From a virus (Duplodnaviria > Caudoviricetes), in IMG/VR virus record IMGVR_UViG_3300021256_000011, positions 1 to 64,000 of that record: a stretch of 64,000 nucleotides of DNA. One strand, written 5' to 3'. The first letter of the stretch is position 1, and each line of letters begins with the position of its first letter. A model generated the notes under the pieces. It had not been told where the DNA came from, made no database searches, and was given only the letters and a program-made list of their open reading frames with translations. A program made the translations under genes and the position numbers. Below are positions 2,292 through 28,226 of the stretch, piece after piece.

Positions 2292-3509
2292 CTACTTCGT
2301 GTGAAGGATAAACATGTCACGAGGACGGGTAGGAACGCACAGCACGGTGAGTTCGGAGACCCAGTCCTGATACTTGGTACGGGGGTCGTAGCGGTACTCG
2401 ATGATGCCGTGACCGCCGAAGATGGTAGCGCTGATGGCGCTAGGATCCGGACGGAGCGGAACGACATTCTTCTTGATACCGACCTTGCCGGAAGGACGCA
2501 CCAGATAGGTGTCCTTATTGAAGGCCCACAGCTTGTTGCGGACGAGCTTCTTGTTGGTGTCATCCCAAACCTCGACGCCGCAACGGGTCTTGTTGTAGAT
2601 GACCTCATCGGCTCCGATAATAGCCTTGAAGGCAGCCTTGGTGGCATCGTCGGAAGCGGTCGCAGCAATAGCCTTAGCAGTGTTCTGAGCGTCAGCGGTA
2701 ACGCCGGCAGAGACGAGCAGAGCGGGGGTGAGCTGATAGCCGAGAGCGATAGCCCACTTGCTGTGCTTCATATCCTCGAAGAAGGACTCTTCGTTAACCT
2801 CGACGGTCACAGAGTCGTAAACCTCCTTGGCGTCGCGAACCATCTTCTTGATGTCGTTGACAGGGTCGGAAGCGCTACCCTCGGATGTCTTGGCGTCATT
2901 GGTAAACCAACGGGCCGTGCTGGTGAGGGTCGTGATGTTCGCCTGGGGGATCTGAGCGCTGAAGGTGATGTTCTGGATACCGCGAGGGTTGTTGGTGTTG
3001 GTCAAAGTGACGGCACCAACAGACTTCATCTGGCCGACCTGATAGGAGATGGAGCCGATGTGGGCGTCCTGAATCTCGGACAGACCGCCGAACAGAAGTT
3101 TGGCGAGGTAATTCTTGATGCCTTCTTCGGGAGACTGATTCATGAAGGTTGCAGAAACCTGGATGTTCTGCATGGTAATCAGTTCCTTGCGGTAGTCGTT
3201 TTCGCCAAGCTCCCAGCGAGCTTTCTGGCGAGGGATGGAACCACTCAGGGTGTTGAAGCCCTTGGTCCCGAGAGGAATCGGGTCGGAGTTGAGGTCCACA
3301 TAGGTGGCCATCACCTTGATCTGGTCCTCGACCTCAAGCATCTTGTAGTCGAAGTCAATCTGAGGGATGTCCCACTCTTCGAAACCGATTTCGTTCAGGT
3401 TCTGGCTCTCGCGACGGGAGAGAACCTGAAGGTAGTAAGCCATAAAGGCTTCAGACGAGGTGATGCCGTTAGAGGCCATCAGAGTGTCAAGTCCAAAATA
3501 CTGATTCAT
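2292..3509 (-). CDS. major capsid protein
   Basis: 405 aa, strongly biased codon usage, follows scaffold and decoration genes; resembles capsid E-type family. Confidence 0.8.
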   Translation of the reverse strand: MNQYFGLDTLMASNGITSSEAFMAYYLQVLSRRESQNLNEIGFEEWDIPQIDFDYKMLEVEDQIKVMATYVDLNSDPIPLGTKGFNTLSGSIPRQKARWELGENDYRKELITMQNIQVSATFMNQSPEEGIKNYLAKLLFGGLSEIQDAHIGSISYQVGQMKSVGAVTLTNTNNPRGIQNITFSAQIPQANITTLTSTARWFTNDAKTSEGSASDPVNDIKKMVRDAKEVYDSVTVEVNEESFFEDMKHSKWAIALGYQLTPALLVSAGVTADAQNTAKAIAATASDDATKAAFKAIIGADEVIYNKTRCGVEVWDDTNKKLVRNKLWAFNKDTYLVRPSGKVGIKKNVVPLRPDPSAISATIFGGHGIIEYRYDPRTKYQDWVSELTVLCVPTRPRDMFILHTK

Positions 3510-3513
3510 AGTT

Positions 3514-3885
3514 CTACTCGTTTACGAAAGTGATACCAGGGAGAAGAGCCTTGACGGCTGCAGAAATAGAAGGGATGCGCTTTGCGAGCACCTGTCCCTT
3601 GGTCACGACAGTGCCGGTCGCGCCGACGTTGCCGATGTAGACGTCCTCAAGAAGAAGACCTGTGACTCCAGTCTCGGGAGCGGCGGCATCGGGAGCGAGG
3701 ACAGTAGCCTCACCGCCCATTTTCGCCACATACACGACGGAGCCGGCCTTGACGGTCGTGCCCTGGGTCTGAGAGTTCAGGGTGCAACCAGCCGGATAGA
3801 ACTCGTCGGTATGAAGCCAAATGGGGACCTTTCCGGCAGCATAACTCTGGGAGTCATTGTTGAAAGAGTTACCGTAGTTTTTCAT
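3514..3885 (-). CDS. head decoration/cement protein
   Basis: 123 aa Ala/Gly/Val/Thr-rich protein between scaffold and capsid (GLLLEDV...GTVVTKG). Confidence 0.65.
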   Translation of the reverse strand: MKNYGNSFNNDSQSYAAGKVPIWLHTDEFYPAGCTLNSQTQGTTVKAGSVVYVAKMGGEATVLAPDAAAPETGVTGLLLEDVYIGNVGATGTVVTKGQVLAKRIPSISAAVKALLPGITFVNE

Positions 3886-3908
3886 TGGTCACAACTTTTG
3901 GGTTAAAC

Positions 3909-4616
3909 TTACTTTTGTTCTGCGGGGAGCAAGCCTTCACCTTCGAGGTACTTAGCCTGGGCAGAGAAGTCATAGTTGCCGGAACCGCCGCCATCGTCCT
4001 CAAAAGGCTTGGTGGCATCTGCGCCCTTGCGCTTAACCAGCTTGTTGAAATACTCCGTTGCCTTGGTCGTAAGTTCCTCCTGGGTCATGCTGTCTCCCTT
4101 GGCCGCATTCAGCTCTTCGGCCCTCTCCCAAGCGTCGTCCGCTTCGTCCTTGAACTTCGTTGTCCACTTGTTCTCGAAGAATTTGGTCTTCGCCAGGGTT
4201 TTAGCCTCTTTAGCCGTAGTCTGCGACCTGAAGGTCTCGAAAGCAGTCTTGATGTCTTTGATGCCGTCAGCAACTCCGTTCTTGATAAGCTCAGCAATCT
4301 GCTCAGCCGTCAGTGCGCCCTTGTTGCCGTCGCCGTCTCCACCACCATCACCGCCTTCGGGATGTGCCGCTTTGTAGGTGTCAAAAGCACTCTGCGTCTC
4401 GGTCCTCTTGGTGATTTCCTGGTCGCGATGCTTCATTAACTCCTCAGCAACTAGTCTCATAGTCTCTGCATCCGTGAGGACGGTTTCAACCTGAGATTCT
4501 TCTGTGACCGTCTTTTCTCTCGCCGTGGCAATCCGGTCGATAGCCTCGTTGCTCAGCCCGAAACGCTTGATTTCAGATTTCGCCCTGAGCCCTTCAACGA
4601 TTTTTTCTTTGAACAT
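3909..4616 (-). CDS. capsid scaffolding protein
   Basis: Charged helical protein with a Gly-Asp linker. Start moved to MFKEKIVE (4616) because a promoter lies at 4647-4677. Confidence 0.65.
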   Translation of the reverse strand: MFKEKIVEGLRAKSEIKRFGLSNEAIDRIATAREKTVTEESQVETVLTDAETMRLVAEELMKHRDQEITKRTETQSAFDTYKAAHPEGGDGGGDGDGNKGALTAEQIAELIKNGVADGIKDIKTAFETFRSQTTAKEAKTLAKTKFFENKWTTKFKDEADDAWERAEELNAAKGDSMTQEELTTKATEYFNKLVKRKGADATKPFEDDGGGSGNYDFSAQAKYLEGEGLLPAEQK

Positions 4617-21246: not shown

Positions 21247-22818
21247 CTAAAAAGGAAGCCCTTCATATTCGTCTTTTCCTGCGGGCATATCGTCTACCAC
21301 AGGCTCGTTTTTTACGCTCTCCACGGGCGCCACCTCCAGGTAGTACCAGATGCCGTCGCTTCTCCGCTGAGAAGCAGCGCCCATCTTCTTGAACTGCTCC
21401 GTGACCGCCGAGCGCGAGCGAGGCGTTTCACCCCAATCCTCGCAGTATTTCTTGTAATCCTGGACCCATTCCTTGAGAGACTTCCATCCAGGGGCCCTGT
21501 TATCTTCCGGCTGGGCCGCAACATAGCCCATCGTGTCAATCCAGCGGCGCAGGCTGTTGCTATTGGCCTTCATCTCGTCAACAACCTCTTTGACGGAACT
21601 AGCAATTTCAATCTTGCCCTCGTTCTTGATGAAAGACCGGTACCCTTCCAGGACCCAGTTGAAGATGGCAGACTTCACTTCTGGGGCCTGGAGCTTCATT
21701 TCAAGCATAGGGTCCTTGTCTCGGTCATCAATATGGTTCGGTGCCAGGATAATCAGAAATCTCCTGAAATAGCCCTCGGTATCATCCGTTGTCGGAGGTA
21801 TCTTGTTGGCGCAGCAAAGCATAAGGGGGATCTTGTCAACCTTTGTCGGCCTTTTCGAATAGGGGTGCCTGCCGGTAAATGCCCCGCCGGAAACAAACTG
21901 CTTAAAATCGCCACCTGAGAAGTCTTTGTTTGATACCTCATCGCAATAATTCACTATCTTTCCGTTAACATCGGCCAGGTGGTACTCCATCTGAGCGCTC
22001 TTGAAGAGCTGCTCAGGGCTGTAACTGCTGGCCACCGCGGGCCCAAGCATGTTAACCACCGCCTTGCAGATAATACTCTTGCCGTTCTGGCCTTCGCCGA
22101 CGACAAAGCATATGTATTCAATCTTGTATTCGGTCCTCTTAGCAAGGAAACAACCGCAAAACTGGTGCAGAGTCTCCCGCATATTCTCGTCCGGGACAGT
22201 CTGGGCAAGGACCTTATCCCACAGCGCAGAACGCGCATCAGCAACATAATCGAAGTCCAGGACGATATCGGTCTTATATTTCATATCGAAGGGACACAAC
22301 TTCATCTGCTGCAGGTCATAGACGCCATTCTTGAAGCATACATACCGGCGGTCCGGCACAAAACGGCAGCGCTCATCCCCCTTTAAACGATTAAGGCAAT
22401 AATCCTTCACGATATTCACCGAACTGGTCTGGTACACAATGCCGACATTCTGACGCTCCAATACCTCATTGATTATCTCCCGGAAGGTCTCCTCCGTCAT
22501 CCTCTCGTAATACTGCCCGTTGAAGGCGTATAACTGATCATCCTCATCCATCTTGAAGAAATCGTTCCCCCCATCTCCGGCCAGACCGCAAACATAACGG
22601 CGCATGGCAATGCAGATGCCAGCCTCCGTCTTTTTGTTCACCCTGTCATCCGAGAGGCCAAAATCCACAAAGGATTGTCCGGCAGTCGAACACAGGTAGT
22701 CTATTATTTGCGCGTACTTCACTGAAAACTTGCGGTTTTTCAATAAAAAAGCCAGAACAGACAGGGCCCTTCCGGAGAAGGTGGGTACACCCTGGCTGCT
22801 CTGGCCCGATTCTTCCAT
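21247..22818 (-). CDS. D5/P4-family primase-helicase (SF3)
   Basis: D5_N region (FKNGVYDL), GEGQNGKS Walker A, YCDE, LLCCANK. Start reset to MEESG; the track's extra 41 codons run through a promoter and tRNA-like RNA 2. Confidence 0.85.
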   Translation of the reverse strand: MEESGQSSQGVPTFSGRALSVLAFLLKNRKFSVKYAQIIDYLCSTAGQSFVDFGLSDDRVNKKTEAGICIAMRRYVCGLAGDGGNDFFKMDEDDQLYAFNGQYYERMTEETFREIINEVLERQNVGIVYQTSSVNIVKDYCLNRLKGDERCRFVPDRRYVCFKNGVYDLQQMKLCPFDMKYKTDIVLDFDYVADARSALWDKVLAQTVPDENMRETLHQFCGCFLAKRTEYKIEYICFVVGEGQNGKSIICKAVVNMLGPAVASSYSPEQLFKSAQMEYHLADVNGKIVNYCDEVSNKDFSGGDFKQFVSGGAFTGRHPYSKRPTKVDKIPLMLCCANKIPPTTDDTEGYFRRFLIILAPNHIDDRDKDPMLEMKLQAPEVKSAIFNWVLEGYRSFIKNEGKIEIASSVKEVVDEMKANSNSLRRWIDTMGYVAAQPEDNRAPGWKSLKEWVQDYKKYCEDWGETPRSRSAVTEQFKKMGAASQRRSDGIWYYLEVAPVESVKNEPVVDDMPAGKDEYEGLPF

Positions 22819-22844
22819 TGCCTCGTACCCTTTGAGGCGGACTG

Positions 22845-22875
22845 CAAAGTTAGCGATTTCCCGCCAACCTGCAAA
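22845..22875 (-). promoter_or_regulatory. Bacteroidota sigma-A promoter for the helicase operon
   Basis: Minus strand TTTG-19 nt-TAACTTTG. Confidence 0.7.
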
Positions 22876-22885
22876 CTTTTTTTTG

Positions 22886-22968
22886 AGGCGCCAAGGAGAC
22901 TCGAACTCCCGACCCCATGGTACACACTGGATGCTCCCCATGCGCTCTACCTACTGAGCTAAGGCGCC
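22886..22968 (-). tRNA. tRNA-like RNA 2 with a 17-nt anticodon loop
   Basis: GGCGCCT/TGGCGCC acceptor, GCTC-AGTAGGTA-GAGC, CATGG-(GGAGCATCCAGTGTGTA)-CCATG, GGGTC, GGGAG-TTCGAGT-CTCCT; followed by T-CAA. Confidence 0.8.
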
Positions 22969-23027
22969 ATGTGCCGGTCTATTCCCGGCAGTCAGTCATA
23001 ATAGGCCCACGCATCACTGCGGTGAGT

Positions 23028-23061
23028 TGGTGGACGGACCCGGATCCCTCCGGACCCGCCC
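23028..23061 (-). ncRNA. tRNA-minihelix-like hairpin ending ACCA
   Basis: GGGCGGG TCCGG AGGGAT CCGGG TCCGTCC ACCA: 12-bp helix (7+5, G-U allowed) plus NCCA. Confidence 0.45.
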
Positions 23062-23101
23062 TGTAATGAAAACTAATACACTTATGTAACGCTTCGCAGC
23101 G

Positions 23102-23135
23102 TGGAGCCCCGGAAAAGAATCACCCTCGCCGGGGC
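23102..23135 (-). ncRNA. second acceptor-like hairpin ending TCCA
   Basis: GCCCCGG-16 nt-CCGGGGC-TCCA; same 34-nt length as the first. Confidence 0.35.
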
Positions 23136-23236
23136 TTGGATTTTTAGAAAAGTATCAATATTTACCCTTAGAGGGTTTCTCACCCCCGTCGATTCCTTTG
23201 GATCGGCATTTGCGGTTAAAAAATAAGGGTTTTTCG

Positions 23237-23315
23237 TCCCCGCGGAAGGGCTCGAACCTCCGCCCCCCGGCTGACCTCTCATTGAGCCGGATTCTACCAA
23301 CTGAACTACACGGGG
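23237..23315 (-). tRNA. tRNA-like RNA 3 with a 12-nt anticodon loop
   Basis: CCCCGTG/CGCGGGG, GTTC-AGTTGGTA-GAAT, CGGCT-(CAATGAGAGGTC)-AGCCG, GGAGG-TTCGAGC-CCTTC; followed by A-CGA. Confidence 0.75.
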
Positions 23316-23323
23316 AAACCATC

Positions 23324-23617
23324 TTACTCGCCGCGGGCAAAGAACTCCTTGTACCAGGCGACGCAATCCTCGCGGCTCGCAAACAGAACATCGGCATCCA
23401 CGATGCCCTGGTGGCCGCAGAGCTGATACTGCTCCTGGACCTTCATCTGGCCGGCCTTGATTTTCTCCGCAATGCTCTTTCCGCTGTCCTGCTGGACGCC
23501 TTCTATGGCCACGGGTATGAACAGGGCGCCGTAAACATCATCCTCCTCGATACGCATCGAGAGGCTGTTGAATAGGAACACATGGTCCCCACACTGAAAC
23601 TTGGTCTTTTTTTCCAT
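23324..23617 (-). CDS. hypothetical protein
   Basis: 97 aa; ends 8 nt before tRNA-like RNA 3. Confidence 0.6.
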   Translation of the reverse strand: MEKKTKFQCGDHVFLFNSLSMRIEEDDVYGALFIPVAIEGVQQDSGKSIAEKIKAGQMKVQEQYQLCGHQGIVDADVLFASREDCVAWYKEFFARGE

Positions 23618-23991: not shown

Positions 23992-24155
23992 TTTCCACAT
24001 ATTTTGTAAAATCCACATCCACCCCGGGCCGAACGCCCCGGGCATCCCTGCGGTCCAGCTCATCCCGGACCTCTATAAGAGCCTTTTTCCTCTCCTCGAA
24101 CAGCATCTCAAGCTCTTTCCGACTTAATTCTCGAAGATTCATATCTGCAAAACTA

Positions 24156-27589: not shown

Positions 27590-28226
27590 ACCCGTGCACG
27601 GGTGAAACTTTGCACGGGTTCACTAAATCGGACTTTTTAGAACTGCAAGAATTTTCGAAAGGGACTGCAAGCAATTGCACGAACAAGACAGAACCTATTG
27701 CACGACTAAAACAGGCGGACGGTACGAGTGCGGAGGCCGTCTAACAAATAGAAAAACCGACACAGCCCGACTCTGGGAACGGCTGGGATAAGTACGCCCT
27801 TTCCGGAACTGGCAAACGAACGAAAGCAACGGCCGAACGGCCTGCGCTGACTGACTGAGCCACGCCCGAACGAGAGCGGAAAAAAGACTTCATGAAACAG
27901 GGGGAGGGCGCACGAAACGGGGGAGAAAATCCGGATTAGTGCCAAGAATAGAATTAGTGTAGGCATCCAAGAGCGATGTGGCCCGAAACGAAAGAAGAAG
28001 GGCGAATGACGCGAAGACGGGAGTAAGTCCGAACTAGTGGTATAAATAGCGACCTATTGTGTTATGCCGATGACAAGGAACGACACAATAGGGTAAACCG
28101 AAACAACAAACAACGAGCGAGGAGGGAGCCGAAGATCCCGAATTGCAATTTATCGGCCTGGGCTGGGCGACACCGGCTCAGGCTGCCAAGTATTAACCAA
28201 ACGACCGCCGAAGGAGGGCGGAGGGT
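27590..28226 (+). ncRNA. candidate large structured RNA (~600 nt)
   Basis: No credible plus-strand ORF. Multiple helices including 27795-804/27901-910, 28053-062/28083-092 and 28156-166/28173-183, with A-rich linkers. Boundaries approximate. Confidence 0.5.

Follow-up and report, generated by a model that had tools for sequence, protein, structure and literature searches.

Two hairpins with encoded CCA ends in a phage RNA array: candidate tRNA-derived acceptor mimics, one of alanine type

We analysed a 64,000-nucleotide (nt) stretch of DNA (the window), which covers 64 kb of the 72.8-kb record of a metagenomic phage (IMGVR_UViG_3300021256_000011); the record is complete and has direct terminal repeats. 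Its minus strand carries, between two transfer RNA (tRNA)-like genes, two 34-nt hairpins ending in NCCA: the ACCA minihelix at 23061-23028, and a second hairpin, ending in TCCA and called hairpin 2 below, at 23135-23102. The interpretation that we favour, and which we hold as an even call, is that these hairpins would be tRNA-derived acceptor mimics released by RNase P, one of them of the alanine type. Judged by comparison with related phages, both stand where whole tRNAs stand elsewhere, hairpin 2 descends from a tRNA-Leu gene, and the ACCA minihelix is under selection as a paired RNA, with its CCA and its alanine-type base pairs conserved.

Two hairpins of a common build

The two elements read GGGCGGG-TCCGG-AGGGAT-CCGGG-TCCGTCC-ACCA and GCCCCGG-16 nt-CCGGGGC-TCCA, exactly as described in an earlier reading of the window made from its letters alone (the sequence-only reading). 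Folding with ViennaRNA gave for the ACCA minihelix 13 base pairs (bp), a GGGA tetraloop and a free ACCA (-23.4 kcal/mol, z -3.7; 0 of 200 shuffles were as good), and for hairpin 2 a stem of 7 bp, a 1x1 mismatch, 5 bp of which three are G.U, a UGAU loop and a free UCCA (-19.9 kcal/mol, z -3.2). Both share one build within their 34 nt: a helix of 13 stacked layers is closed by a tetraloop and ends in four bases left unpaired. The earlier description of each as 7 bp, 16 nt, 7 bp and NCCA applies to both, but this loose pattern is not significant alone, being seen three times in the window against 1.4 expected and reached by 16% of shuffles. Perfect 12-bp hairpins followed by NCCA number two in the window against 0.03 expected per shuffled window, and perfect hairpins of at least 12 bp only seven, both strands counted. 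The second of these two perfect NCCA hairpins is on the plus strand (28155-28188; -24.1 kcal/mol), where 12 bp enclose a loop of 6 nt and GCCA comes next; it lies 40 nt before ATG 28227, within a stretch free of open reading frames (ORFs). Blastn showed no conservation of it in three relatives, and it is treated here as unrelated.

Neither hairpin was matched by Rfam (E<=10, 22700-23450), nor by ARAGORN. The cloverleaf of RF00005, which comprises a D arm, an anticodon arm and a T loop of 7 nt, is absent from both, each folding as a single hairpin, and the loops (GGGA/AGGGAT and UGAU) do not carry the plant-type t-element motif GGTTCRANYCC. The trailers ACTCAC and CGCTGC contain no T run, and a terminator scan called neither hairpin an intrinsic terminator.

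Both hairpins stand in tRNA slots of a modular array

We collected 18 related loci by way of the helicase encoded next to the hairpins (68-86% amino-acid identity); their sample numbers are presumably those of rumen metagenomes. The site upstream of this D5-like primase-helicase was readable in 17 of these relatives, where it is a modular tRNA array with changing tRNA sets (Met, Lys, Leu, Ser, Phe, Asn) and odd tRNAs with long anticodon-loop inserts. GenBank phages gave zero matches when searched by blastn with the array region. In the relatives the units follow one order: leader hairpin, tRNA, GNRA hairpin, AT-rich spacer (…TTTTGTAAGTTTTTGTGTATTT…), next tRNA. The leader hairpin, GACA-GCCGG-GAAAGA-CCGGC, has covarying stems and lies a few bases 5' of the tRNA, and the GNRA hairpin, CGCA-GTGA-TGCG, starts 0-6 nt past the tRNA 3' end.

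The window runs from tRNA-like gene 1 through a spacer, hairpin 2 with its TCCA, a GNRA hairpin, an AT spacer, the minihelix with its ACCA, another GNRA hairpin, a spacer and a leader hairpin to tRNA-like gene 2. Read against the order of the relatives, both CCA hairpins sit in slots that there hold whole tRNAs. Three smaller hairpins, which had also been recognised before, are by the same comparison conserved punctuation modules of the array: the GNRA trailer hairpin CGCT-GCGA-AGCG (23101-23090, minus strand), of the kind found after tRNA 3' ends in related arrays; a second one, CGCA-GTGA-TGCG (23021-23010, minus strand), identical to the post-tRNA hairpin of loci L004, L005, L011 and L012; and the leader hairpin TGCCGG-GAATAGA-CCGGCA (22990-22972, minus strand), the unit that relatives carry ahead of tRNA 5' ends. 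The sequence-only reading had proposed that an intergenic region of 430 nt is processed into a set of tRNA-fragment mimics. The proposal is supported in part. The two CCA hairpins may keep their place in such a set, both occupying tRNA slots and one being a deleted tRNA-Leu, but the smaller hairpins fall out of it as punctuation, and the true gap between the tRNA-like genes is 268 nt (23236-22969).

No canonical tRNA was found in the complete phage. Its array is made up entirely of the two minihelices and of tRNA-like genes whose anticodon arms are aberrant, so that the function of the locus here is not codon supply; the decoding tRNAs have all been lost.

The flanking tRNA-like genes lack CCA, as had been noted, their 3' ends reading A followed by CGA and T followed by CAA. 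Across the arrays of the window and of loci L002-L015, a full CCA is encoded in only 2 of 26 distinct genes for tRNAs, tRNA-like RNAs and transfer-messenger RNA (tmRNA), and C74 is present in all 26. The hairpin elements, of two kinds and in two lineages, carry CCA in all four cases. The universal C74 suggests a host 3'-processing rule that keeps this base, and the CCA pattern of the hairpins is consistent with a requirement for RCCA, either by minimal RNase P substrates or for exonucleolytic 3' maturation.

The ACCA minihelix is conserved as an RNA

When the array was compared with all loci by blastn, the only matches were the ACCA minihelix and the T arm of tRNA-like gene 1. The minihelix, at the identity peak of the whole array, occurs in three variants: that of the window, that of L007, L008 and L032, and that of L017, L029 and L030. 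Identity to the window copy is 32/34 in L008 and 31/34 in L017 (91-94%), and the surrounding segments are 31-59% identical, except for the 12-nt GNRA hairpin at 75%. Four-fold degenerate sites in the adjacent helicase and small ORF show 38-48% identity and are saturated. At a neutral identity of 0.5, the binomial P for the minihelix is ~3e-8 to 4e-7. The conserved block spans only ~50 nt, so that a recent module swap is no explanation for this identity, and the comparison indicates that the minihelix is under strong purifying selection. The similarity stops right at the CCA, beyond which the trailers read ACTCAC, GGAGCG and TGAGCG.

The three substitutions in the stem (G.U to A-U, C-G to U.G and G-C to G.U) all preserve RNA pairing. 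All 39 cells of the stem are paired, and sliding the partner by one column reduces this to 49-62%. Three wobble pairs are fixed in each copy and would be mismatched on the other strand or in DNA, so that the selected object is the minus-strand RNA. Readings of the element as a DNA-level palindrome, an attP core or a terminator were ruled out by the fixed G.T positions and the lack of a T loop and of a T run.

The pairs G1-C72, G2-C71 and G3.U70 are invariant in all three variants, and the element also has C4-G69. G3.U70 lies within the 7-bp acceptor helix (pair 3/28 in all variants), next to a single-stranded CCA that is constant. The discriminator N73 varies, being A in the window and L008 and G in L017. 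G1-C72, G2-C71, G3.U70 and A73 form the alanine identity set and are enough to charge minihelices. Alanine identity depends chiefly on G3.U70, and in minihelices A73 and the second pair also play a part (PMC9976931, citing Francklyn & Schimmel 1989, Shi et al. 1990). Bacterial RNase P, for its part, cleaves model hairpins and relies on the 3' RCCA, its RNA pairing with RCC (PMC12710915), and the ACCA minihelix has the corresponding features of 13 bp, ACCA and, in all variants, an unpaired A at -1.

Conservation of NCCA in related phages had been suggested as a check by the sequence-only reading. It came out positive for this element, which recurs with ACCA or GCCA in two other lineages. Four IMG/VR pattern scans and one JGI metagenome scan returned only these same two lineages; six matches to the 5' half alone and one metagenome match were chance hits without a hairpin. 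A covariance model (R1) found no copies beyond those of the window, L007/L008 and L017 in 20 sources (the window and 19 loci), five whole relatives and the rest of the phage.

Hairpin 2 derives from a tRNA-Leu gene

In a MAFFT alignment, window 23150-23062 matched the tRNA-Leu(AAG) gene of L002 (3146-3230) together with its trailer. The 5' acceptor strand GCCCCGG is identical in both, and a gap of ~52 nt in hairpin 2 corresponds to the D, anticodon and variable arms. Beyond the gap, GAGGGTGATTCTTTT of hairpin 2 is aligned to the L002 T arm GGAGTTCGAGTCTCCT, and the 3' side CCGGGGC-T-CCA to CTGGGGC-A-CCA; past the CCA, the alignment continues through the GNRA hairpin and then the GTGTATTAGT spacer. 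A local alignment with cheap long gaps scored 39.4 between hairpin 2 and the L002 tRNA-Leu, compared with 17.4 +/- 3.2 for shuffled sequences (~6.8 standard deviations). On this alignment, hairpin 2 is demonstrably a tRNA-Leu gene cut down by internal deletion. Its decayed T-arm remnant is recognisable only through the alignment, and its acceptor stem, GCCCCGG/CCGGGGC, is perfect (7/7 pairs). The C-to-T changes in the T-stem remnant leave G.U pairs, indicating that the helix persists as RNA.

In L007, L008 and L017, the slot of hairpin 2 holds ACCCTGG-16 nt-CCAGGGT-CCA (L008 2466-2498). Relative to the window, the L008 counterpart shows two compensatory pairs (G-C to A-T and C-G to T-A), 13 layers, a GGGA tetraloop and an unalignable interior; between lineages the shape of hairpin 2 is kept and the sequence is not (32-35% identity). 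The conservation check was positive here too, the positional homologue carrying an adjacent CCA, one base nearer the stem, so that either the register is shifted by one base or the discriminator has been lost. With U73 and a potential A(-1)-U73 pair, hairpin 2 resembles the hairpin substrates of RNase P only in part. U73 alone confers cysteine identity on minihelices in E. coli (PMC9976931), to which we give little weight for hairpin 2.

Transcription context and neighbouring features

On the minus strand, the replication module runs in the order MazG (24063-23662), a 97-amino-acid ORF (23617-23324), the ORF-free RNA array and the D5-like primase-helicase. Promoters were called with TTTG…TAnnTTTG, which we take to be the consensus of Bacteroides/Bacteroidota. 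Near the array there are only two, one at 24155, before MazG, and one at 22876-22845 (minus strand; TTTG ... TAACTTTG), just past tRNA-like gene 2, where the array ends and the helicase leader starts; the latter is conserved in relatives as TAnnTTTGCAATCCGC. As the array lies downstream of MazG and the small ORF with no recognisable promoter between, it is probably the 3' part of the MazG/small-ORF transcript. A scan of the array for a sigma-70-type promoter or a terminator marking the hairpins found none.

tRNA-like gene 1 (23237-23315, minus strand) has intact acceptor, D and T arms and a 12-13-nt anticodon loop; it scores 41.7 bits as an Rfam tRNA and is reported by ARAGORN as 'tRNA-???'. 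tRNA-like gene 2 (22886-22968, minus strand; 47.4 bits as an Rfam tRNA) has a 17-nt loop in the anticodon position and homologues in L002 (3860-3939) and L011 (2889-2971). The enlarged loops of this family share U-CCA-G, reading GGAGCATCCAGTGTGTA in the window, GAGGCATCCAGCAAGTA in L011 and GGTCGGCCAGTATT in L002. The anticodon-loop inserts in tRNA genes of relatives measure ~25-45 nt (L003 2642-2760, L004 1456-1557, L014 3265-3362, L015 1777-1884) and are too short for group I introns. In L009, a tmRNA at 206-617 (Rfam 59 bits) carries G3.U70 and C4-G69, encodes no CCA and has a predicted tag of unusual length; it is followed, at ~620-740, by another tRNA-like element with inserts.

The AT-rich spacer between the two CCA hairpins (23062-23089, minus strand; TTACATAAGTGTATTAGTTTTCATTACA) is homologous to spacers of L002, L005, L011 and L008. 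At 23205-23217 on the minus strand, after a T run, lies the motif AACCGCAAATGCC, which does not vary among L007, L008 and L017 and is similar to the helicase-gene leader AAAACCGCA. The form (A)AACCGCAA after a T run occurs in all relatives, and in the window both at 23205-23217, after tRNA-like gene 1, and at 22729-22739, before the helicase start, on the minus strand; it may be a duplicated gene-start junction. A divergent or permuted tmRNA in the spacer was considered, as the conserved GCA-AAT-GCC resembles a resume codon, and was rejected: the frames differ (47 vs 10 codons), there is no hydrophobic tag end, and Rfam and ARAGORN were negative. More probably, this motif was copied from the helicase leader AAAACCGCA.

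The helicase leader, ~100 nt long and present in all relatives, contains GGGTAC (22830-22825), which can pair with GTACCC (22788-22783), and a long hairpin (22806-22751) followed by a T run; hairpin and T run together span 22741-22806 on the minus strand. This conserved leader may be an attenuator or a small RNA. Residues 1-30 of the helicase reading from ATG 22818 are not conserved, and from the sequence comparison the start is most likely GTG 22722 and not ATG 22941 or 22818.

The window is mosaic at 22969-23330. The small ORF is 84% identical at the amino-acid level to L008/L017 and 33% to L002; for the helicase, the figures are 87% with L002 and 77% with L008. These differing affinities place the joints within the RNA array, which has the look of a hotspot of recombination made up of trailer and leader modules in repeated copies. 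In L008, an ORF resembling IS200/IS605-type TnpB, so named from a reading of its letters, lies at ~2790-3990, between the helicase leader and the helicase gene. One metagenome-assembled genome (G006, 2.4 Mb) includes a 2.6-kb contig with an 80%-identical helicase (locus L033). All 33 of its 33 tRNA genes encode CCA and SusD is absent, which conflicts with the Bacteroidota-like promoters of the phage. The helicase contig may be mis-binned, and this genome was set aside as a guide to the host.

Discussion

We propose that the hairpins are 'top-half' genes, in which an acceptor stem stacked on a T-arm remnant, a tetraloop and an encoded CCA would have been retained in a phage tRNA array without any decoding tRNA. 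The array would be transcribed as the 3' end of the MazG/small-ORF message. A 13-layer helix with a 3' NCCA is the design of model RNase P hairpins, so that RNase P should cut at G+1; exonucleases would trim the other side back to the CCA, leaving RNAs of ~34 nt. Since the ACCA minihelix presents G1-C72, G2-C71, G3.U70 and A73, the alanyl-tRNA synthetase (AlaRS) of the host should bind it and would probably charge it. The resulting RNA would be non-decoding, and its likeliest use would be to mimic the acceptor end and so titrate or divert some host factor that reads acceptor stem and CCA, with AlaRS itself or a CCA-end-directed defence toxin as candidate targets. Such a decoy role is plausible by analogy. 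In its full form, a natural alanine minihelix cut by RNase P and charged by AlaRS would serve as a decoy or sink for readers of the acceptor or CCA (toxSAS, MenT-type toxins, AlaRS) or as a private alanine donor, which we think unlikely.

For 35 years, minihelices have been laboratory tools for studying how synthetases, RNase P, the CCA-adding enzyme and CCA-end toxins read tRNA. Hipps and Schimmel are said to have found in 1995 that expressed minihelices inhibited the growth of E. coli. We know of no established natural minihelix gene, nor, to our knowledge, has a non-decoding minihelix decoy been described.

Several observations weigh against the interpretation as acceptor mimics. The CCA of hairpin 2 may simply be inherited from its CCA-encoding tRNA-Leu parent, and its register in L008 differs by one base. 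The ACCA minihelix is represented by three sequence variants in two to three lineages of the IMG/VR and JGI metagenomes, which gives small comparative power, and shows no pair changed on both sides; it has no 7-nt T loop, and one variant has G73. All 34 nt are conserved, lower stem and loop included, beyond what AlaRS or RNase P needs, which implies an additional reader. A CCA-adding enzyme and SmpB were looked for in the phage and neither was found, so that nothing indicates a dedicated pathway.

The main rival, which is simpler, takes the hairpins as processing punctuation: RNase P would cut on the 5' side and exonucleases would be blocked on the 3' side, separating and stabilising the neighbouring tRNA-like RNAs and the upstream mRNA, and the released hairpins would have no job. 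We consider it somewhat unlikely. The array is rich in other conserved punctuation hairpins, a hairpin with RCCA is enough for RNase P (PMC12710915), and t-elements and acceptor-like stem-loops of plant mitochondria act in this way (PMC1920247). Hairpin 2 is well accounted for, as it keeps its shape of 13 layers and a tetraloop, and not its sequence, between lineages, like a structural signal. The sequence conservation of the ACCA minihelix is not: its 91-94% identity, loop included, and its three fixed wobble pairs at saturated divergence are left unexplained, and the canonical tRNAs of these arrays are processed without an encoded CCA. The same conservation bears on the idea that the hairpins are evolutionary debris, internally deleted tRNA pseudogenes of a fast-turnover array whose CCA and stems reflect recent descent. 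Hairpin 2 does derive by deletion from a tRNA-Leu gene with an encoded CCA of its own, the array is a mosaic that changes from relative to relative, and the T loops have decayed. However, the ACCA minihelix is the regional identity peak at saturated synonymous sites, the stems are fully paired through wobble-preserving changes, and hairpin 2 has an acceptor stem paired 7/7 and an L008 counterpart with two compensatory pairs, which makes debris quite improbable as an explanation.

A sequence-specific hairpin bound by protein or RNA outside tRNA biology, for example the operator of a phage RNA-binding protein or a replication-linked element, with a fortuitous CCA, seems to us improbable, if less so than debris. 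It would account for the conservation of the whole element including the loop, which suggests a reader contacting more than the acceptor end, and for its location in the replication module, adjoining the primase-helicase. Against this, conservation stops right past the CCA in three variants, the element occupies a tRNA slot flanked by tRNA trailer and leader modules, and a second, equally long CCA hairpin adjoins it; the three fixed G.T positions make selection on a DNA palindrome unlikely, and the absence of a T run speaks against an intrinsic terminator. We regard as very improbable that the ACCA minihelix is a reduced tmRNA, a remnant of the tRNA-like domain (TLD) titrating SmpB or disturbing trans-translation. 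In the relative L009, this array includes a genuine tmRNA whose top four pairs (G1-C72, G2-C71, G3.U70 and the unusual C4-G69) are identical to those of the minihelix, and both a TLD-only tmRNA in phage DS6A and the inhibition of tmRNA by such molecules have been published (PMC4131195). The similarity is nevertheless limited to 4 bp. The minihelix has no 7-nt T loop, D-loop analogue or SmpB-binding region, and its acceptor 5' strand runs uninterrupted into the T stem; neither Rfam nor ARAGORN detects a tmRNA at the array, G3.U70 being the only RF00023 feature present; and the phage has no SmpB.

On a modest reading, the locus illustrates a tRNA gene whittled down to a processing signal. Were the acceptor-mimic RNA made and charged, phage tRNA arrays could evolve into sets of non-decoding acceptor mimics, and the minihelix would be a simple candidate for a new counter-defence or host-takeover RNA. 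If the decoy proposal holds, Schimmel's minihelices would gain their first counterpart in nature, and the minihelix would be a counter-defence built from a tRNA fragment. The comparison also defines a grammar of leader hairpin and GNRA trailer hairpin for the tRNA array of these rumen, probably Bacteroidota, phages.

The ACCA minihelix most resembles the synthetic tRNA-Ala minihelix and tetraloop substrates of AlaRS (Francklyn & Schimmel 1989, in PMC9976931), with which it shares a 12-13-bp coaxial acceptor/T-stem helix, G1-C72, G2-C71, G3.U70, A73, a single-stranded CCA and the absence of an anticodon. Those substrates were constructed in the laboratory, with a T loop of 7 nt or with designed tetraloops, whereas the ACCA minihelix, a putative substrate, is a conserved gene found in nature and has a GGGA loop and C4-G69. 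The model hairpins of RNase P (pATSer type) and its natural non-tRNA substrates (PMC12710915) likewise have a ~12-bp helix capped by a GNRA-type tetraloop, a 3' RCCA and, at -1, an A that is not paired; the model hairpins were designed from tRNA-Ser, whereas the RCCA hairpins of the phage are genomic, lie in an array and are putative substrates. The t-elements and acceptor-like stem-loops of plant mitochondria (Forner et al. 2007, PMC1920247) are also tRNA-derived partial structures within longer transcripts; t-elements direct cuts by RNase P and RNase Z, and once released can be stable and gain C or CCA (PMC1920247). Unlike the phage hairpins, they are organellar, keep the GGTTCRANYCC T-arm motif and encode no CCA; the phage hairpins have decayed T loops and an encoded CCA, and one is under sequence-level selection. 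The TLD-only tmRNA of mycobacteriophage DS6A (Hudson, Lau & Williams 2014, PMC4131195) is a phage-borne, non-decoding acceptor mimic of alanine identity that could titrate a host factor, and relatives carry a whole tmRNA; that molecule retains the tRNA-like domain, the T loop and the SmpB-binding part, whereas the ACCA minihelix is a plain 34-nt hairpin. Finally, phages counter tRNA-directed defences with their own tRNAs (PMC11555353; bioRxiv 10.1101/2023.03.15.532788), so that arrays set against host immunity have precedent, and the toxSAS toxin FaRel2, which reads acceptor pairs 1, 2, 4 and 5 and the CCA, accepts and pyrophosphorylates minihelices (PMC11559606). The tRNAs that evade these defences are functional decoding replacements (PMC11555353; bioRxiv 10.1101/2023.03.15.532788), in contrast to the phage minihelix, which would be non-decoding.

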